Shown here: one piece after another, positions 3,862 to 60,567 of the stretch | How positions within the stretch are numbered: position 1 is the first letter of the stretch | Layout of the letters: the number at the start of each line of letters is the position of its first letter | Origin: Eledone cirrhosa | Lineage: Eukaryota | Assembly: GCA_964016885.1 (NCBI GenBank) | Contig: OZ024749.1 | Location: 37,696,001-37,760,000, forward strand | Direction: 5' to 3' | Length of the DNA stretch: 64,000 bases | Position numbers and translations under genes: made by a program | Notes under the pieces: model-generated | Seen by the model: only the letters and a program-made list of their open reading frames with translations | Told to the model about the DNA's origin: nothing | Database searches by the model: none

Positions 3862-3977
3862 TAACGAAGGAAGTGCGATAAGGTACCAAGTGGACCATAA
3901 CGCACCCGAGTACTCGATACTGAGATAGCTGTCGAAACGGCCGGAGCTCAGCCGTCGGGGTCCTGATTATTTTCCTA
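3862..3977 (-). mobile_element. F1 island, rearranged (antisense tail joined to sense HHR 3' half)
   Basis: Homologous to 15656-15847; contains GAAACGGC..GCCGTC. Confidence 0.7.
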
Positions 3978-4004
3978 TATTTATATATATATATATATAT
4001 ATAT

Positions 4005-4135
4005 ACGTTATTCCGGGTTGAATCGGAGGTAACCACAGTAAGTAAGGTACTCAATACATAGCAGAGTATAACAGTTTTAATATAGATGAGATTCTACAGG
4101 ACTAGAACTGTTTCATTCATTAGAAATCATCAGAT
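4005..4135 (-). ncRNA. TA-flanked island F8 with HHR-like motif
   Basis: Minus strand reads CTGATGA-t-ttc(taat)gaa-t-GAAA-cag-TTC-tagtcc. Related copy at ~7450-7533 shares GTACTCAATACAT and TTCTACAGGACTA. Confidence 0.5.
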
Positions 4136-7420: not shown

Positions 7421-7555
7421 ATATATATATATACGTACGTACATACATAAGAATAGTTTATAGGGACTCATTGATACCTGTACTCAATACATTAAGTAGA
7501 GCGTGTCCATTGGAAATTACTTCTACAGGACTAACAATATTATATTTTTCTTGAG

Positions 7556-7745
7556 GGCGGTGGATTGGCAGTATCGGTAGAGGGACGGACGCCATGCTTT
7601 GTCGCATAGAGTTACGGCCCTTGCCATTCTGAGTTCAAATCCCGCAAAGGTTAACTTTGCCTTTCATCCCTACGGGGTCGATAACATAAAGTACCAGTAA
7701 TGTACTGGGTAATTGCTGGCCTTGTGCCAAAAGTAGAAATAGTTA
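7556..7745 (+). mobile_element. tRNA-derived SINE family A (~190 bp)
   Basis: A-box-like TGGCAGTATCGGT, B-box GAGTTCAAATCCC, body GTTAACTTTGCCTTTCATCC..GGGGTCGATAA; about 22 copies in the window. Confidence 0.85.
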
Positions 7746-7885
7746 TATTTGTCTTGAAATTTCACCAGTTATTAACATAAATTATTGAAGAAACGATGCA
7801 ACTAGCCAATGTTTTTGAACTGGATACATACAAACTATATGTATATTAAACTGCAATATAATATAATACTTATACACATATATAC

Positions 7886-9575: not shown

Positions 9576-10206
9576 CTTCTTCTTCTTCTTGTTTGTGTTG
9601 ATGTTGTTGTAACGGTATTTGATGTTGCTGTTGTAGATGATCATCAACCCTCCGAATCCCTCCCCCCGCCCGCCCCTTCTTACAACTATGTCTTTCAAAT
9701 CTTCAATACCTCACGACCATCTCCTCCCCCCCCCGCCCCGCACCCTACAATACCTTCTTTAGACACCATCACCTTTACCACCACCACCACCACCACCACC
9801 ACCACCATCCCCACCACCACCACCACCACCACCACCACCACCACCACCACCACCACCAACAACAACTACAGCAGCAACAACAAAAACAACAACAAAAAAA
9901 TCAACAACAGCAACAAGACCACAACACACCACCACTACGAAAACCACCACCGCCACCAGCAACAAAATAACAACAACACTACCACCACAACAACGCATCC
10001 CCACCACCACAATCACCAAAGTGAACATTATAATTCCTTATTAACACTGACATCTATTAGACATATGTCGGTTAAGAGGCAGAAACACTGGAATTATGGC
10101 AAATTAGGCACACTGATTATTATTATTAGTATAATTATTATTATTATTGCTTCGTGTCTCGACACAACGTCATAAATTGCTCCGTAAGTTTGTTCTGATA
10201 TCACAC

Positions 10207-10977
10207 TGGATTGGCAGTATCAGTAGAGGGTCGGACGCCATGCTTTGACACAAAGAGTTACGTCCCTTTCCATTCTGAGTTCAAATCCCGCCGAGGTTAA
10301 CTTTGCCTTTCATTCATACGGGGTCGATAAAATAAAGTACCAGTAATGTACTGGGTATTTGCTGGCCTTGTGCCAAAAGTAGAAACAGTTATTAGTTATT
10401 GAGGCAGTGGATTGGCAGTATTGGTAGAGGGTCAGACGCCATGCTTTGCCACATAGAGTTACGGCCCTTTATGATATGATCTAAGATCAAATCCCGCCGA
10501 GGTTAACTTTGCCTTTCATCCTTACGGGATCGATAAAATAAAGCACCAGTAACGTACTGGGGTCGATTTAATCGACTTTCCCCTCCCGCCAAATTACTGG
10601 CCTTGTGCCTATGTGGATTGGCAGTATCAGTAGAGGGTCGGACGCCATGCTTTGACGCATAGAGTTACGGCCCTTGCCATTCTGAGTTCAAATCCCGCCG
10701 AGGTTAACTTTGCCTTTCATCCTTATGGGGTCGATAAAATAAAGTACCAGTAATACACTGGAATAATTGCTGGCCTTGTGCCAAAAGTAGAAACAATTAT
10801 TATTATTAGTGAATTGACAGTATCGGTAGAGGGCTGGATGCCATGCTTTCTAGCATAGTTACGACCCTTTACGGTCTGAGTTCAAATCCCGTCGAGGTTA
10901 ACTTTGCCTTTCATCCTTACTGGGTCGATAAAATCAAGTACCAGTAATGTACTGGGTAATTGCTGGCCTTGTGCCAA
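10207..10977 (+). mobile_element. Four head-to-tail SINE A copies
   Basis: Copies at ~10207-10390, 10403-10610, 10613-10798 and 10809-10977. Confidence 0.85.
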
Positions 10978-12162: not shown

Positions 12163-12398
12163 CATTGTTAGAATGAGGCCTGGTTCAAATGCCCCGTTCA
12201 CCCCGCTATAAACCCTACTCTGTATATCATAGTAATCGAAGGATAAAATTGAAATAGTATATTTAAGAGAACAATTTGTTAAATCTTACTGAAGAAAGAT
12301 CAAGCTTGCCATCGCTCAATCTGGCCAGTTCAGTGGTTTGGTGCAGCTTTTTTAGACATTGAAACACTGAGCCTGGATACAGGATACTGGATCAACAT

Positions 12399-12585
12399 GG
12401 TGGATTGGCAGTATCGGTAGGGGGTCGGACGCTTTGCTTTGAAGCATAGAGTTACCTCCCTTTATGATCTGAGTTCAAATTCCGCCGAGGTTAACTTTGC
12501 CTTTCATCCTTGCGGAGTTGATAAAATAAAGTACCAGTAATGTACTGCGTATTTGCTGGCCTTGTGCCACAAGTTGAAACAATTA
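12399..12585 (+). mobile_element. SINE A
   Basis: Matches the family consensus. Confidence 0.85.
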
Positions 12586-12631
12586 CGTTATTGTATTAAT
12601 GTCTACTAAGATGTTGAGTGCATGTTCTTGA

Positions 12632-14086: not shown

Positions 14087-14745
14087 CGAGGTGTGTAGTT
14101 ACTAAAAACAAGGTTTAGGATGGTGGTTAAGACGGAACAAGAGGAGAAAGGAAGAAATGAGGTTCCTTCGTCAGCTGTATATGTTTATTATATACATACA
14201 TATATAAATATATATATGTGTGTGAATGTGTGTGTGTGTGTGTGTGCGTGAATATGTGTGTGTGTGTCTGAATGTGTGAGTGTGAGTTAGAAAGTGTGTC
14301 TGCGTGTGTATGTGAGAGTTCCTGTCTATACATCTGTATGGGTGCGTCTGTCTTAGAGTGTGTGTGTATATGTATGTATATATGTGTGTGTATATGTGTG
14401 TGTATATATATGTATGTGTGTTTGTGTGTGTGAGAGAGTGAGTATGTGTGTGTTGTGTGTGTGTGTGTGTGTTTGTGTGTGTGAGAGAGTGTGTATGTGT
14501 GTGTGTGTGTGGAGTAGTTTGAGGATGATAATAGCAACAAGTGAAGAGGTCATGTTTTCCTATGGTGGGGTGTGTATGTTGATTTCCGGTCGACCAGTTG
14601 CAAAAATATTTGTTATAGATAATTCTAGAAAAAGCAATTTTGATTTGGAAGCGACCCCAGAACTTATTGCTTCGGCTCAGAACATCTGAACATCGATACA
14701 CTTCAATTCCGTCATTTAGCGAAGACCCTACACTCTGTGTAGTAA

Positions 14746-15005
14746 TAATTGTTTTTACTTTTTGGCACAAGGCCAGCAATTAACCAGTGCATTACTGGTA
14801 CTTTATTTTATCGACCCCGTAAGGATGAAAAGCAAAGTTAACCTCGGCGGGGTTTTGAACTCAGAATGGCAAGGGTCGTAACTCTATGCGTCAAAGCATG
14901 GCGTCCGGCCCTCTACCGATATATGCCAATTAAATAAATTTGAAGATCCCGATAAGGGTGAAAGCAGCGATTCTTTGCTTAAACTTTAATCTGTTATTTT
15001 AATAA

Positions 15006-15044
<39 letters not shown>

Positions 15045-15413
15045 TAGATAGATAGATAGATAGATAAGATATATATACACACACAAACACAAACACACGC
15101 ACACACACACACATATATATATATATTTATTAAAATAACAGATTAAAGTTTTAGTCTTCAAATTTATTATTATTACTATATATATATATATATGATATAT
15201 GATATATATATATATGTCTATATATATATATATATACACATATATATGTATAATTATTTCTACTTTGGGCACAAGGCCAGCAAATACCCAGTGCATTACT
15301 GGTACTTTATTTTATCGACCCCGTAAGGATGAAAGGCAAAGTTAACCTCGGCGGGATATGAACGCAGATCGTAAAGGGATGTAACTGTGCTGCAAAGCAT
15401 GGCGTCCGACCCT
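14746..15413 (-). mobile_element. Two SINE A copies (14746-14930, 15252-15413)
   Basis: Reverse complement of the consensus; unrelated DNA lies between the copies. Confidence 0.8.
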
Positions 15414-15655
15414 ATAATGTATTATAATATATATAGAGGGAGATTTTTGCTGACAGTGAGTAGATTCATTGTAACATTAACGGTCTTATTTACGTATATA
15501 CATATATACATATATATACACACATACACATGTATGTATGACGGATATTCCTGGCTTCTATTTCTAATTCTTAATTTATTATATATATCATATTTGCAAC
15601 AACACAGCTCGCCCGCCATTTTTCATTCATATATGTATATATATATATATATATA

Positions 15656-16018: not shown

Positions 16019-16211
16019 TATATATATATATATGAATAAAAAAGAAATTTCTACAAATTTGTGTGTATGTATGTATGTATGTGTGTGTGTGTATATACAC
16101 ACACACACATACACACATACACACATACACACATACATTTGTAGAATTTTTTTTTTGTACAAATTTCTACAAATTTCATACGTGACGACCCAATATATAT
16201 ATATATATATA

Positions 16212-17348
16212 TTGTTTCTACTTTAGGCACAAGGCCAGCAATTACCCAGTACATTACTGGTACTTTATTTTATCGACCCCGTAAGGATGAAAGGCAAAGT
16301 TATCCTCGGCGGGATTTGAACTCAGATCGTAAAGGGACGTAACTATGCTAGAAAGCATGGCGTCCAACCCTCTACCGATACTGCCAATTCACCGCCATAT
16401 ATATTGTTACATAGTTAGTTAGAGGGAGTTAGATAGAGAGAGAGAGAGTTGAATATACAAATAGCCAGTATTTTTTAGTAATTATTGGTGGCACCTGTGT
16501 GATCACACTATGTTTATACCGGAATAAGATAGTTAGCGTTAAAAGTGCGTATTAATGTATTAATGTATTAATGTATTAATGTATTAACACGGCCGTCTGT
16601 CAGTGGTTGTCTAATACGAAGAGTGAAATCCCACCGAGAAAATGTATATACACAATATTTAAAATATATATTGCTATACAATATGTATAATATAGAGTTT
16701 TTTTTCTCTACTTTTGACACAAGGCCAGCAATTATCCCAATGTATTACTGGTACTTTATTTTATCGACCCCGTAAGGATGAAAGGCAAAGTTAACCTCGG
16801 CGGGATTTGAACTCAGACTGTAAAGGGCCGTAACTCCATGCTGCAAAGCATAGTGTCTGACTCTCTACCGATACTGCCAATCCAATGGTTTCTGATTTAG
16901 GCATAAGTCTAACAATTTTGTGGGAGGGGAAATTCGATTAAATCAACCCCTGTTTGTGACAGGTACTTTATTTTATCGACCCCCATAAGGATAAAAGGCA
17001 AAGTTAACCTCGGCAGTATTTGAACTCAGAATGAAAAGGGCCGTAACTATATGTCGCAAAGCATATTGCATGATGATCCAGCACCACCATAATTGTTTCT
17101 GCTTTTGACACAAGGCTAGCATTTGGAAGGGAAGGGGACAGTCGATTAAATCGACTTATTACTTGCTTAGATTGGCAATATACGTAGATAGTCAGACGCC
17201 ATGCTTTGCAGCATAGAGTTACGCCCCTTTACGGTCTGAGTTCAAATCCCGCCTAGGTAAACTTTGCCTTTCATCCTTACGGGGTGGATAAAATAAAGTA
17301 CCAGTAAAGCACTGGGGTAATTGCTGGCCTTGTGCCGAAAGTAGAAAA
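16212..17348. mobile_element. SINE A cluster (16212-16397 -, 16703-16884 -, 16887-17065 -, 17091-17156 -, 17169-17348 +)
   Basis: Matches the consensus. Confidence 0.8.
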
Positions 17349-17985
17349 ACTTATTTTAACACCCCTGGCAGTATAAAAGTCAAAGTTAACGTCTGTGTGA
17401 TTTGAAACCAGATTTGAAACCAGGGTGTAATAAAATATCACAATGCATTCCATTCGAGGATCTACCGATTCTGCCAATCCTACTTCATGTGTGTTACTTC
17501 ATTTTTTTTCACAATTTCTTTCTTTTAATTTTCTGTCTTTCAACACAGATATCTTTTCATGTGTTCTTAAGTTATGACATCATAGTATCTCAATTATGTT
17601 GTTTTAATGACAACAGAGCAAACCTTCTACTAACTGTACATGTTTTCATTACAAAACGGTATCAATGTCTTTATGAATGTAGGTGAATAAGTTTAAATAG
17701 TTTTGAAGTCAGACTTTATTTTTACATCTTCAAAAGATTGTCTTTCTTTCTTTCTTTCTTTCTTTTTTTCTTTTTCTTTCTTTCTTTCTTTCTTTCTTTT
17801 TTTCTTTTTCTTTCTTTTCCTTTCTTTCTTTCATTCATTCCTCTCATTCTCATGCTCTCCATCCATTTCTTCCTCTTCAAATGCCTTGTGATATTAATAA
17901 CTATCTAAAATATTAAGTAGTTTATGTCATCTATATCTATTTTACTTAGAAAGGGATTTATAAATGGTCACAATTTATACACAGT

Positions 17986-22538: not shown

Positions 22539-22562
22539 TACATATATACATATATATATATA

Positions 22563-22805
22563 ATATAAGATCAAAAGTTGGTTAAAGGAGTTCCATGTAT
22601 TTTATTATGCGCATTTCAAAAACAAACATCATCATGCTACAAACATCATCATATTGTTTTTGAAATGCGCATAATAAAATACATGGAACTCCTTTAACCA
22701 TCTTTTGATCTTATATTATGTATACTCCAGTCCTACAAACTGTAGAGTGCTTCTTATCCGATATCTGCATTGCTTTATTGTACTACAATAAAACTCACCT
22801 CCTAC

Positions 22806-22807
<2 letters not shown>
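22563..22807 (+). mobile_element. F2 island, palindromic form (junction in helix II) plus tail
   Basis: Inverted repeat 22563-22626 / 22653-22716; GAAATGCGCATA present; CTGATGA absent. Confidence 0.8.
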
Positions 22808-23280: not shown

Positions 23281-23419
23281 GGAACGTGTAGGACCCCGAC
23301 GGCTGAGCTCAAGCCGTTTCGACGGGGTCCTACTCGTTCCTATTACCCACTCTACTACCCTAAGTATTGAGTACTTTGGTGCGTTATGGTCCACCTGGTT
23401 CCTTACCACATTTCCTTCG

Positions 23420-23465
<46 letters not shown>

Positions 23466-23477
23466 CGAAGGAAATAT

Positions 23478-23518
<41 letters not shown>

Positions 23519-23709
23519 CGAAGGAAATGTGGTAAGGAACCAGGTGGACCATAACGCACCAAAGTACTCAATACTTGGGGTAGTAGAGTGGGTAATAGGA
23601 ACCAGTAAGACCCCGACAGCTGAGATCAAGCCGTTTCGACGGCTAATTCTGGACTAGAATTAGCCGTCGAGACGGCTTGAGCTCAGCTGTCGGGGTCTTA
23701 CTGGTTCCT
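23281..23709. mobile_element. F1 islands: 23281-23421 (+), 23464-23480 fragment (-), 23516-23709 (-)
   Basis: Match 15656-15847. Confidence 0.8.
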
Positions 23710-23811
23710 ATATATATATATATATATACACATATATATATGTGTGTATATATGTGCATATATATATATAGTTATATATGTATGTATATATCTGTTTATA
23801 TATATATATAC

Positions 23812-26611: not shown

Positions 26612-26967
26612 TACATGCATACATATTATATGTATAGATAAGATATACGAACATATTTTATTACATATATTATTTTTTAGTATTTTATTCCCAGCCCACA
26701 GTACAATTTCTTTCACTCGTTGGTAATTTATCATTCAACATGCATTTTTAATCGTCATTATCCTGTTACTAATTCTTTCAAGAATTCTTTATCCATTTCT
26801 TCAGCATATTTATAAATTAACTTTCAAAACATACATTTGAACTGATGTTGAGAACTTTATAGCTTTCTTGGTTTATGTGCCGCTTACATCCTATCTAATA
26901 GAAAGGACTCAACTCGATATATCCTTGCTGTCACATATATATTATCAGGACAAAGCAAACTGCTTTC

Positions 26968-27596
26968 CCGCCGATGTTAACTTTGCCTTTCATCCTTATG
27001 GGGTCGATAAAATAAAGTACCAGTAATGTACTGGGTAATTTCTGGTCTTGTGCCTAAAGAAGAAACAATTATGTTAACTGAATTAAGGGCGGGGAATTGG
27101 CAGTATCGGTAGATAGTTGGACACCATGCTTTGCAGAATAGAGTTACGGCCCTTTGCGGTCTGAGTTCCAATCCCGTCGATGTTAACTTTGCCCTTCATC
27201 CTTACGGGGTCAATAAAATAAAAAATAAAGTACCAGTAATGCACTGGTATAATTGCTGTCCTTGTACCAAAAGTATAAACCATTATTTTAACTGAAGTAG
27301 AAAGGATTTCATTATGGCTGGCGGATTGGCAGTATCGGTAGAGGGTCGGACGCCATGCTTTCCAGCATAGTTACGTCCCTTTATGATCTGAGTAGAAAGG
27401 ATTTCATTATGGCTGGCGGATTAGTATCGGTAGAGGGTCGGACGCCATACTTTCCAGCATAGTTACGTCCCTTTATGATCTGAGTTCAAATCCCGCCGAG
27501 GTTAACTTTGCCTTTCATCCTTACGGGGTCGATAAAATAAAGTACCAGTAATGCACTGGAATAATTGCTGGCCTTGAGCCTAAAATAGAAACAATT
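26968..27596 (+). mobile_element. SINE A cluster with a local tandem duplication of a SINE head
   Basis: Copies at 26968-27070, 27087-27283, 27316-27391 and 27410-27596. Confidence 0.8.
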
Positions 27597-27604
27597 ATGG
27601 CTTG

Positions 27605-27684
27605 TATTGGTTCTTCAAGTATGAAATTTGTAAAAATTTGTAGGAAAAAAAATGTCTACAAATTTCCTGCTTGACGATCCAATA
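27605..27684. mobile_element. 80-bp mariner-type MITE (MADE1-like size) with TA ends
   Basis: TA-TTGGTTCTTCAAGTATGAAATTTGTA...TACAAATTTCCTGCTTGACGATCCAA-TA; better-preserved right half at 16137-16195. Confidence 0.65.
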
Positions 27685-30290: not shown

Positions 30291-31287
30291 TCCAACTCAA
30301 CCATTATCATTTCTACCACCTGTACACTGTACACCATCACAACCCTGGCCACAACAGCCAGCACTGTTATCACCCAGACATCCAGCATCAGCAGAATACC
30401 AATTATGCACAATCATAACCACAACCATTACTATCAGCACAGAAACTACCATCACAACCACAACAACCGACATCACGCCCTAGACCACCAGCATGACTAC
30501 CCCGTGTACTTCTCCCACCCACCACTACTACAAAATTCCATTATAACTACACCATTATGATAGAAGTAGTTGCGAAATGCCCTTTGGTAACATTTAATAT
30601 TTTAAAGAAGCACTGTTAATGATGCCAAACTGCTCAGATTTACACATTTCTATTCTGTGGAATTGGTAAGGGATATGAAAGAAACCGGCTGTGCTTTATG
30701 AGTTGGAAATACATTTCTACAATACTTTTATGTAATCTTTCACTAAGGCAACCACAAGCATGAATCTTTTTCTTTTTCACTAAAGGAACAATTAATTCTG
30801 TCCCCTTTCTTTAATGAGCAGAACGTAGCAAGTGAATTTTATTTCACGTCCTATTACGTTTTTTTCTTTCCCACTCAATCCGTTTCTCTCTTTTTCATTG
30901 TTCTTTGTTCATTTTTTTTTTTTACTTCTTCGACACCTTTTCTGGTTTTACAATCATGATGACCACCACCTGTTTTATTTTTAGTTTTTTTTCGTAATTC
31001 TATTCTTCTTTTTTTTTCTTTTGTCTTCTGATCGAATCATTAGATATGTCGGAATACATGCTATATAATCGCCGGTTCGTATTCAGTCAATGGTGTAACA
31101 CTGTTTTCACCATCAATACATTTAATTATAACCGTAAAGAGATACCATAGTTTGCATGAATTTCTCCATTGCAAAGAATGGGACGCCTAAAGTTTCAACT
31201 CATTCTCTCTCGGCTGGAGACAACCGCTAGCTCAATCCTCTCAGTAAGGCATTCCTTGCTATCTATCCAATAGAGAAAGAATAGACT

Positions 31288-31925
31288 GCTTCTTAAGAAC
31301 CTAATCTATAGCTCAACCACCACAAATCAACAATGGACTGTTTTTTATGATTATCATTTATTATTCAACATCTAAAGATCAACATGGTATTAGTTCTTAA
31401 GTTTATAATCTATAGCTCAATTACTACAGATCAAATATGCAGTACTTCTTAAGATGGCTCAACAGTTACAGACCAACTAAGTAATGCTTCTTAAGATCCT
31501 AATCTATGGTTCAACTACTACATATCGATATATTGTCGGTGGAATGGTTCTTAAGAAACTAATTCATGGCTCATCCACTACAGACCAACGGTGAAATGAT
31601 TCTTAAGAACCTAATCCATGGCTCAACTACTACAGACCAAAAGTGAAATGCTTCATAATATTTATGGCACAACCATTACTGAACAACGGGGGAATGCTTC
31701 TTAAGGTCATAATAGATAGCTCAACGACAACAGATCAAGGAAGGAATGCTTCTTAAAATTATAAGCTATAGTTCAACGACTACAGATCAACGGTGGAATG
31801 CTTTCTAATATCCTAATATATGGATCAACATAAACAGATCAAGTGTAGGGTACTTCTTAAGAAGTTTATCAACGGTTCAAGATCTATAGATCAATATTGG
31901 AATGTTTCCTACGGCTCAACGTCAG
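31288..31925. repeat. Degenerate ~52-bp minisatellite, ~12 units
   Basis: Consensus approximately TTCTTAAGAACCTAATCTATGGCTCAACTACTACAGATCAACGGTGGAATGC. Confidence 0.85.
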
Positions 31926-32389: not shown

Positions 32390-32391
<2 letters not shown>

Positions 32392-32703
32392 GTAGGAGGT
32401 GAGTTTTATTGTAGTACAATAAAGCAATGCAGATATCGGATAAGAAGCACTCTACAGTTTGTAGGACTGGAGTATACATAATATATAAGAACAAAAGAGG
32501 GTTAAAAGAGTTCCATGTATTTTATGTTTTATATGTATTATATGTTGATTTAAAACTGCACTATCCACAAGTGTTTTTTAACCTTCATATCATGTCTTCC
32601 TGTTTTATCTGATGAAAACACAAATATTATTGCATGATGATATTTGTTTTTGAAATTCGCATAATAAAATACATGGAACTCTTTTAACCATCTTTTGTTC
32701 TTA
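32390..32703. mobile_element. F2 island with inversion: minus arm 32390-32525, plus arm ~32565-32703
   Basis: Matches 22653-22807 and 60366-60508. Confidence 0.8.
32601..32671 (+). ncRNA. Type I hammerhead ribozyme (F2)
   Basis: tgttttat-CTGATGA-aaacacaaatattatt...gatgatatttgttttt-GAAAT-tcgc-ATA-ataaaata. Confidence 0.75.
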
Positions 32704-32714
32704 TATATATATAC

Positions 32715-32744
<30 letters not shown>

Positions 32745-32745
<1 letters not shown>

Positions 32746-32866
32746 ACGAAGGAATTGTGGTAAGGAACCAGATGGACCATAACGCACCAGAGTACTCAAT
32801 ACTTAGGGTAGTAGAAATAGCCGTCGAAACGGCTTGAGCTCTGCCGTCGGGGTCATACTTTTTCCT
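32745..32866 (-). mobile_element. F1 island, rearranged
   Basis: Antisense tail joined to AGAAATAGCCGTCGAAAC. Confidence 0.75.
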
Positions 32867-32932
32867 ATATATATATATCTATGTGTATATATATATGATC
32901 AACCGACTTTCATCAACTGAATAATATATATA

Positions 32933-35303: not shown

Positions 35304-35869
35304 GAGTGAGTGTGTGTGTGTGTGTGTAGTAAAATATCTTGTCTTTTTCTTCTACGCTACTCAAGTTCGAATGGAATAATTCCGTGGTTTTCGCTCCCAA
35401 CGCCATTGCTGTTGTCATTGCCGGTGTTGTTGCTTCTGTTGGTTTTGCTGTCGATGTCGTTGGTTACTCCTGTTGGTGGTGGTGGTGGTGACGGTGGCTT
35501 TGTTGTCTGTAGTGGTAACAGTGTTGAAATTAGTGGTGGTGGAGGTGATGATATTACTGTCAACATTTGAGTTGCTGTCACGTGTGAGCTGTCTCGAAAC
35601 AAAGGGGCCATTTTTTTTTTTTTAAACGCTTGGAGGTGTGAAAATGAAAATAAAATTCAAATATTTGGACCAGAAGCCTAAATAATATGGCGTCGCCTTT
35701 TCAGAGGGTAATGTATGGCACACTATTAACAGTGTGTAACAAAAATATTTCAACATATCATACTTTAAATAACTTAATACAAACAAAATTTACTGAGCGA
35801 TCTGTACACGCGTCTGGAAAGATTCAACAACAAGGATAACAACAACGATAACAACAAAAACAACAATAA

Positions 35870-36058
35870 TAATTGTTTCTACTTTTGGCACAAGGCCAGC
35901 AATCACCCAGTGTATTACTGGTGCTTTATCTTATCGACCCCGTAAGGATGAAAGGCAAAGTTAACTTCGGCGGGATTTGAACTCAGAATGGCAAGAGCCG
36001 TAACTACATACGTCCAAGCATGGCGTCCGACCCTCTACCGATACTGCCAATTCACGGC
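35870..36058 (-). mobile_element. SINE A
   Basis: Matches the consensus. Confidence 0.85.
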
Positions 36059-36167
36059 CCTTTTAATAATGATAATAATATATGTATATCTTATTGTACA
36101 TATTTATGGTCATATGTAAAGATACAGAGAGAGAGAGAGAGGGGAGGATAGAGATAGATAGATAGAG

Positions 36168-51885: not shown

Positions 51886-52054
51886 GTTTTTCTGGTAGAT
51901 ACTGTGGTTAGATGTCGTAGTGATTGTGGGTGACGTTGATGGTTGTTAGCGTTCAGTCTCAGGTCAATCGTGGTTCGTGTAGTTACAACATTAAAGACGT
52001 TCCAGCCGTGGTCATCCATCTAATCTTTCAAGATATTTCTTAAACTTTAATAAA

Positions 52055-52424
52055 TAATTGTTTCTACTTTTGGCACAAGGCCAGCAATTAACCAGTAAAT
52101 TACTGGTACTTTATTTTATCGGCCCCATAAGGATGAAAGGCAAAGTTAACCTCACGGGATTTTAACACAGTCCGTAATGGGACGTAACTCTGTGCCGCAA
52201 AGCATTTCGTTCGACCCTCTACGATACTGCCAATAATTGTTTCTACTTTTGGCACAAGGCCAGCAAATTAACCAGTACATTACTGGTACTTTATTTTAAC
52301 GACCCCGTAAGGATGAAAGGCAAAGTTAATCTCGGCGGGATTTGAACTCAGAATGGAAAGGGCCGTAACTCTATGCGTCAAAGCATGGCATCCGACCCTC
52401 TAACGATACTGCCAATCCACCGCC
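52055..52424 (-). mobile_element. Two tandem SINE A copies
   Basis: Match the consensus. Confidence 0.85.
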
Positions 52425-52699
52425 AATCCAAATAATATCGCCATTTTCTTTCTCTTATTCGTGAACAAGAAGGAAGTACTATGACAGAATTCCGAAGAAA
52501 TAGAAATTTAAAAAAAAAACATTAGAATTATGTGAAGACTAATGAAGGAAAAACACTTTGTAGCTGTTACTTTTGTAGTTGCTGATATAGTTGTTATTTT
52601 TGTTGTAATCGTGGTTGTAGTTGGTGTTACGGCTGTTGTCATTGTTTCTGTTACTGATGTTGTCATTGGCGAAGATGTTGCTGTAGTTTTTGCTGTATC

Positions 52700-60367: not shown

Positions 60368-60402
60368 TCACAAGTGTTTTTAGGCCTCCTATCATGTTAC
60401 CT

Positions 60403-60472
60403 TATTTTATCTGATGAAAACACAATTTTTGTCCCAGGATGATGTTGTTTTCGAAATGCGCATAATAAAATA
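60403..60472 (+). ncRNA. Type I HHR (F2) in island 60366-60508
   Basis: tattttat-CTGATGA-...-GAAAT-gcgc-ATA-ataaaata. Confidence 0.75.
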
Positions 60473-60505
60473 TATGGAACTTATTTAACCATCTTTTAAT
60501 TTCTT

Positions 60506-60567
<62 letters not shown>

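Follow-up and report, generated by a model that had tools for sequence, protein, structure and literature searches.

A head-to-head insertion in the window (the whole 64-kb stretch of DNA analysed, C9:37696001-37760000, from a 3.0-Gb animal genome with abundant TA microsatellites and repeats reminiscent of those of cephalopods) raises the question of whether some retroelement copies begin exactly where a hammerhead ribozyme cleaves its own RNA. A sequence-only reading had described such copies in three repeat families of the window, here termed F1, F2 and F8, and had proposed self-cleaved RNA as their template for reverse transcription. Coordinates within an element are given relative to the predicted hammerhead cut, with 0 as the first base after the NUH triplet; the window loci are collected in Table 1. 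Of the 27 arms listed in the window, a single F2 arm has its first base precisely at a cut, and a single F1 arm is compatible with such a start. Comparison of the window with Rfam gave 442 matches, and the 150 listed were all low-complexity microRNA matches.

Table 1. Window features bearing on the 5' ends of F1, F2 and F8 copies, with neighbouring SINE-like repeats
Feature	Position	Strand	Description	Basis
F2 long arm	32390..32525	-	0 to far 3' end (+136), terminates in (TA)n	read directly and arm listing
F2 junction filler, 14 nt	32526..32539	.	short copies of adjoining sequence	read directly
F2 short arm	32540..32708	+	main 5' point (-124) to near 3' end (+45), whole hammerhead uncut	
F2 type I hammerhead	32601..32671	+	stem I 32601-08/32664-71, core CTGATGA 32609-15, GAAA 32652-55, 2-bp stem III, AUA 32661-63, cut 32663/32664	
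F1 short arm	23281..23325	-	+20 back to -26/-28, passes through cut	
F1 long arm	23324..23421	+	start -1 to +2 (CGG microhomology 23323-25), reaches +98	
Divergent F8-type copy	7450..7533	-	starts 10 nt upstream of GUA cut (7524/7523); 3' limit approximate	
F8 copy	4005..4133	-	starts at hammerhead core (-39); cut 4095/4094; GAAA, stem III and GUA present	
Second F2 head-to-head insertion	22560..22807	.	both arms start near -31 and pass through cut	
Third F2 copy	60370..60510	+	complete hammerhead at 60411; starts about -95	
SINE-like repeat	7547-7750, 10204-10977, 12398-12599, 14742-15417, 16158-17360, 26966-27642, 35863-36061, 52052-52425			

The window is also rich in nested and tandem repeats. 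Penelope families lie nested in each other's (TA)n flanks at 32390-32868, 3863-4133 and 23281-23711, a 190-nt SINE-like repeat recurs about 20 times, in part as tandem copies, and a diverged tandem repeat with units 65-72% identical occupies 31284-31911.

The three families are terminal-repeat pieces of Penelope-like retroelements (PLEs) with type I hammerheads, inserted head to head in (TA)n, and most copies are 5'-truncated head-to-head insertions. An inverted 5'-truncated copy beside the terminal repeat is present in the window at 32390-32708, 22560-22807 and 23281-23421, and at many sampled loci. We mapped arms by local alignment to real long copies in a sample of 1.664 Mb (16 segments of 100 kb from 9 contigs, 1.6 Mb in all, plus the window), yielding 171 F1, 32 F2 and 67 F8 arms; query-biased loci were left out of the sample histograms. 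In this sample each family has two fixed 3' ends, namely +20 (51 arms) and +98 (68 arms) among the 171 arms of F1, +45/+53 and +132 to +136 in F2, and +22 to +31 and about +90 in F8. (TA)n terminates the arms in the window and at almost all printed loci, a bias for which there is no control set.

Upstream of a long F2 copy (L007), a 186-aa frame shares 41% identity with the end of the 724-aa protein P0001 (E = 1e-14), and the sequence upstream of F1 weakly matches the C-terminus of the same protein (E = 5e-4); no match to a P0001-type C-terminus was found upstream of the F8 repeat. By eye, P0001 appears to carry RT and GIY-YIG motifs; in Pfam no family scored above the cut-off for it. Upstream of another F2 arm (L027), the opposite strand, again judged by eye, presumably codes for a Penelope-type RT thumb region. 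Neither a full-length element nor an RT assignable to F1, F2 or F8 was obtained. An origin of the two arms from different repeats, distinguished by a T or G loop variant, was considered and rejected, as another query gave the same one-sided rare variant, which points to search bias. EN+ PLEs are described as comprising a pLTR, an inverted 5'-truncated copy and an optional tail (PMC8557442, PMC3846280). The families described here resemble them in the head-to-head arrangement of the arms, the pair of alternative 3' ends and the (TA)n targets; the frame upstream of the F2 repeat, and more weakly that of F1, may correspond to their C-terminal endonuclease. They differ in that the two 3' ends lie about 60-90 nt apart, as opposed to 30-40 bp in those reports.

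In all three families the hammerhead core, GAAA and NUH motifs occur in order. The core is CTGATGA in F2 and F8, whereas the eight complete F1 cores of the sample read TTGARAA in six (U3-A8) and CTGARAA in two (C3-A8). The F1 copies of the window all lack the core, which lies upstream in the eight longer sample copies; their ACCCC pairs with the GGGGU that follows GUC. Stem I measures 8 bp in F2, 5 bp in five of the eight F1 ribozymes and at least 4 bp in 13 of 15 F8 ribozymes when GUA is taken as the F8 triplet. The F8 order is core, GAAA, CAG...CTG and GUA, with a weak stem II, and the arms of its stem I covary (AGATTC/GAATCT, GGCTTC/GAAGCC). The F8 copy starting TAGTCC at 7533 is present as had been described, but the assignment of UUC as its cleavage triplet fails, given that UUC leaves a stem I of 0 bp in every one of the 15 complete F8 ribozymes. 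The true F8 cut is at GUA, 10 nt downstream; therefore the copy at 7533, with its start at -10, spans the cut.

Predicted folds set the families apart. In the F1 copy of L060 the hammerhead is the minimum-energy fold (-29.7 kcal/mol) with a stem III of 6 bp, although it is the minimum-energy state in only one of the four F1 copies folded; in F2 and F8 it lies 2.4 to 5.6 kcal/mol above the most stable predicted structure. By these predictions, only F1 among the three has a hammerhead able to fold as a monomer. With their weak stem III or stem II, F2 and F8 would need a dimer, and their cutting would be rare.

Hammerheads are not confined to these families. A 964-kb sample contained 51 hammerhead-like matches, comprising F2 and at least six further families, several of them downstream of RT/endonuclease remnants. 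When 5' ends were mapped in four additional families, none had more than one start near the cut, a doubtful one where present, by counts that are unreliable. Long F8 copies (B7a, in L053 and L058) carry a pyrimidine-rich stretch ending in CAG just before stem I, and F1 carries TTTAG at -44 to -40, at its main start. By their sequence both motifs look like 3' splice sites, and they recall an intron of Drosophila virilis with its end at helix I (PMC4209133).

Mapping of the 5' ends revealed main piles upstream of the cut. In F1, 109 of the 171 arms start at -47 to -30 (mode -41), inside stem II and downstream of the catalytic core; in F8, 40 of the 67 start at -42 to -33, most F8 references themselves ending at -42; and in F2, 10 of the 32 start at -127 to -120 (point -124). 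These main starts are exemplified in the window by 32540 (F2, -124), 15710, 47299 and 58675 (F1, -41/-40) and 4133 (F8, -39). Eight F1 sample arms carry the complete ribozyme uncut. Directly before the main start stands a non-native G in 14 of 26 F2 and 15 of 24 F1 cases but in 3 of 8 of the TA-joined F1 set, and many of the G's preceding F1 may derive from the partner arm; a non-native G before the start is likewise described for capped L1 RNA (PMC11702581). Judged from the sequence, the fixed upstream pile is likely a transcript start within the repeat. Since most arms begin upstream of the cut, uncleaved RNA is likely the usual template in all three families. Assembled contigs of four public runs, in which shared junctions collapse, show coverage rising near -41 and no loose end at the cut among the matches listed.

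Starts near the cut are scarce in the 1.664-Mb sample. There is one in F2, the window arm, and one in F8, at +1. A k-mer re-scan found seven F1 arms of six insertions at -1 to +2, of which one is unambiguously at 0; enlarged references and the 15-mer re-scan were contaminated by flanking repeats, and only the rows near the cut were used.

The F2 arm at 32390-32525 does begin exactly at the cut, as the sequence-only reading stated: it opens with ATAAAATAC, and the base at 32526 is non-native. The position of the cut is set by the intact hammerhead of its partner arm (AUA 32661-63, stem I of 8 bp), which places it at 32663/32664. We then hand-classified the first 100 of 449 matches listed in a pattern search for F2 ends (contigs C1-C3), dropping 26 with indels or internal deletions. 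The remaining 74 fall at -4 (7), -3 (12), -2 (5), -1 (4), 0 (6), +1 (3), +2 (5), +3 (5), +4 to +7 (3 each), +8 (2) and the +9 bin (13). Among these listed matches there is no peak at the cut, at poor resolution (6 of 74 over 14 positions, p = 0.44). Inspection of 20 loci showed that ATA flanks the F2 cut on both sides and blurs positions 0 to -3; a small class of cut-start copies may therefore be hidden. In one F2 subfamily, 11 arms genome-wide start at 0, several with AT microhomology. Of 19 F2 arms extending as far as the cut, 18 continue upstream. Among 29 further loci picked by the post-cut sequence alone, 0 of 51 arms start at 0, and one locus (L177) starts by eye at +2 to +6. The window arm may be a product of self-cutting, but it is indistinguishable from ordinary truncation or chance, and is in itself uninformative.

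At F2 junctions, the 7-8 nt that immediately follow the cut are often repeated in tandem (L287, L288, L291, L296, L298, L300, L301). These repeats occur in truncated and full F2 arms alike, and the filler in the window is similar.

For F8, hand classification of the first 100 matches listed in a search of ends joined to TA (C1-C3) gave 47 places, reduced to 46 by one merger, and none of these 46 listed places is a clean start at the true cut. Instead, the bins follow TA microhomology, with 10-11 at -10, 8 plus 4 fold-backs at -2, 9 at +1 and 5 at -4. The TAGTCC start is thus common for the trivial reason that it falls in a TA-microhomology bin. At 17 of 28 printed F8 loci (L132-L157), an identical arm-to-arm junction lies at the core, with CTG microhomology and differing 3' ends; this junction was favoured by the query, and a hot spot or a master copy could both account for it.

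In F1, the junction at which the window copy was said to resume directly after GUC is as described, whereas its exact start is not fixed, as the CGG shared by the two arms spreads it over -1 to +2. In a search of all F1 junctions, the first 100 of 2072 matches listed (C1-C3) were hand-classified; 15 were dropped, and 4 more (3 point mutants and 1 duplication) were removed after inspection of the loci, leaving 81. Position 0 holds 10 of these 81 listed matches (18 positions, p = 0.014), one of the ten being 0 to +2, and 3 further ones lie at -1/0, making 13 together; +7 and +10 have 8 each via microhomology. Two of the loci (L278 and L279) share one filler and perhaps represent one event, in which case the count is 9 of 80 (p = 0.033). 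Five solo copies start at 0 directly after (TA)n (L265-L269), and in four insertions (L271, L272, L278, L279) both arms end at 0/+1 around 5 nt of untemplated filler.

The excess is sharper for F1 ends joined to TA, a class chosen after the all-junction result had been seen; three places are common to both searches. The first 100 matches listed (C1-C3, again classified by hand) represent 54 places, from which 2 tandem duplicates were merged and 16 fold-backs set aside (8 at +5, 2 at +3, 4 at +2, 1 at 0 and 1 at -1), leaving 36. These lie at +4 (4), +3 (2), +2 (2), +1 (2), 0 (14), -1/-2 (2), -4 (2), -6 (1), -7 (2), -8 (1) and -9 (4), so that 14 of 36 fall at 0 over 14 positions among the matches listed (p = 8e-8). 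Restricting the listed matches to those with at most 1 nt of filler leaves 9 of 27 at 0 (p = 7e-5). Microhomology does not favour 0 in F1, where a G run meets TA. At least four F1 sequence variants take part in the cut-start class, which therefore does not stem from one master copy. The base preceding these copies is T in 10, A in 3 and G in 1, showing no cap G. In a comparison search of the main pile (49 places after merging), matching subfamilies gave 28 places in 91 Mb, against 14 of the cut class in 483 Mb; the cut-start class is thus about one-tenth of the F1 main class. Deletion to an upstream native motif was considered as the source of the CCCC-ATATAT junctions, and was rejected on inspection of the F1 loci.

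Taken alone, the three window cases do not support the proposal of a self-cleaved template; what support it has lies in F1 copies elsewhere in the genome. A peak of 5' ends at the NUH site, which the sequence-only reading had named as the test, exists in F1 as a minority class, is not seen among the F2 matches listed, and fails in F8, where it had been sought at the wrong site. Self-cleaved RNA as a template is likewise probable for a minority F1 class and not supported for F8 or for the window F2 arm; the main 5' piles lie upstream in all three families. We therefore lean, with limited assurance, towards a reading in which most copies derive from uncut RNA with an upstream start, and a small F1 class derives from self-cleaved RNA and starts at the cut. 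For a Penelope protein, elongation of both strands of the target is reported, with initiation at two internal sites by which the tail is defined and with unprocessed RNA as the main substrate (PMC11167929). In a putative model, each arm would be one target-primed cDNA, and the far ends of the two cDNAs would be joined to each other. Most cDNAs would run to the transcript start within the repeat. RNA starting at -41 would lack the F1 core and could not cut in cis, whereas read-through RNA with the whole hammerhead would fold and cut. The 3' cut product would retain both reverse-transcription start sites, and the enzyme would run off at 0, yielding the minor class; copies made by such run-off would not begin with a cap G.

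The F1 pile at 0 could be real and still owe nothing to cutting, if reverse transcription or trimming stopped on uncut RNA where the GGGG run ends, a single base short of stem III; coincidence with the cut would then be a by-product of hammerhead geometry. Stem III indeed starts at -2, one unpaired base away, ends after C followed by ATATAT are common at the F1 main pile too, and F1 also has the most stable stem III, so that the family pattern suits a stop as well as a cut. Viewed from the 3' side, however, pairing in the full F1 ribozyme begins at +4 and again at -2; therefore stalls are expected near +5 or -1 and not at 0. Only 2 of the 36 TA-joined ends lie at -1/-2, the stall expectation, versus 14 at 0 and 2 at each of the remaining three C positions. 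The one-base margin lies within the uncertainty of this stall-position reasoning. In addition, pairing of stem III reaches only 0.4-0.5 when the RNA begins at -41, and insertions with both arms ending at 0 around filler resemble a hard RNA end. On balance we regard a stop on uncut RNA as doubtful, but a serious competitor to the cut.

It is improbable that all cases are truncations, microhomology joins or trimming at a palindrome centre, with the F1 excess an artefact of sampling or classification. This would account fully for F2 and F8, whose bins track TA or ATA microhomology, and it gains from the hand classification, the post-hoc class, the use of the first 100 matches listed per search and the lone F1 arm unambiguously at 0 in the 1.66-Mb sample. 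Against it stand the strict count in F1 (p = 7e-5), at a position fixed beforehand by the ribozyme and free of microhomology, and the solo copies without any partner arm; CpG decay of the -1 base is insufficient, as at most 1 of the 36 places has an unmutated precursor junction. At the opposite extreme, self-cleaved RNA might be the regular template in all three families, in keeping with the exact F2 window arm, the 11 further arms of one F2 subfamily at the cut, the several F2 junctions that repeat the first 7-8 nt after it, and an ATA/ATA context that blurs 0 to -3. We hold this to be very improbable, given that 18 of 19 F2 arms reaching the cut run on, that 0 of 51 arms in the 29 loci start at 0, and that the F8 site was misplaced, with no clean start at the true cut among the matches listed.

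On the favoured reading, a minor class from self-cleaved RNA, cutting still does not set the 5' end of most copies. A base-exact F1 pile would be indirect evidence of germ-line cutting and a cheap test for any assembly. The stronger proposition, that F1 records germ-line cutting by a Penelope hammerhead and integration of the cut product, that this concerns monomer-folding families only, and that junction histograms serve as an in vivo assay, we consider evenly balanced between true and false. If true, such histograms would be usable as an assay of Penelope hammerhead activity across genomes. In a literature search with subscription papers mostly outside its reach, no report of a pile of Penelope 5' ends at a hammerhead cut was found. 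The elements, their ribozymes and the logic of reading junctions, known from R2 (PMC3774820), are not new.

The hammerheads themselves fit known PLE ribozymes. F2 and F8 share the core, GAAA, NUH and a short palindromic stem III with the PLE hammerheads of PMC4209133. The U3-A8 core of F1 is the variant described there in Schistosoma Cercyon, and its stem III of 5-6 bp is like that of the fungal PLE ribozymes found there to cut as monomers; that report offers no evidence of cutting in vivo (PMC4209133). The function of hammerheads in PLEs is called unclear in PMC8557442. Non-LTR retrozymes (PMC7229834, 10.64898/2026.07.22.740005) likewise derive from PLEs, are short and non-coding and carry type I hammerheads, but they form head-to-tail tandem units with a ribozyme in each, whereas the arms here are head to head or solo and the cut-start copies lack the ribozyme. 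Head-to-tail tandem hammerhead units were not found among the window copies, all of which are head to head or solo.

In the anole Poseidon element PAc, the ribozyme is dispensable in vitro and no RNA reads begin or end at the cut, as reported by Frangieh et al. 2024 (PMC11167929); in F1, by contrast, the cut is where a minority of the copies in the genome starts. Another parallel is R2 with its 5' HDV-like ribozyme, in which genomic 5' junctions record the cut and are variable where the cut coincides with the end of the element, as reported by Eickbush et al. 2013 (PMC3774820). An R2-like predominance of full-length copies beginning at the cut was not found in any of the three families, whose main 5' piles lie upstream. 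R2 and F1 are thus alike in that genomic 5' junctions mark the ribozyme cut. They differ in that the R2 ribozyme is HDV-like and its cut defines full-length copies, whereas the F1 ribozyme is a hammerhead within the terminal repeat, with a cut at which a few per cent of the short copies begin.
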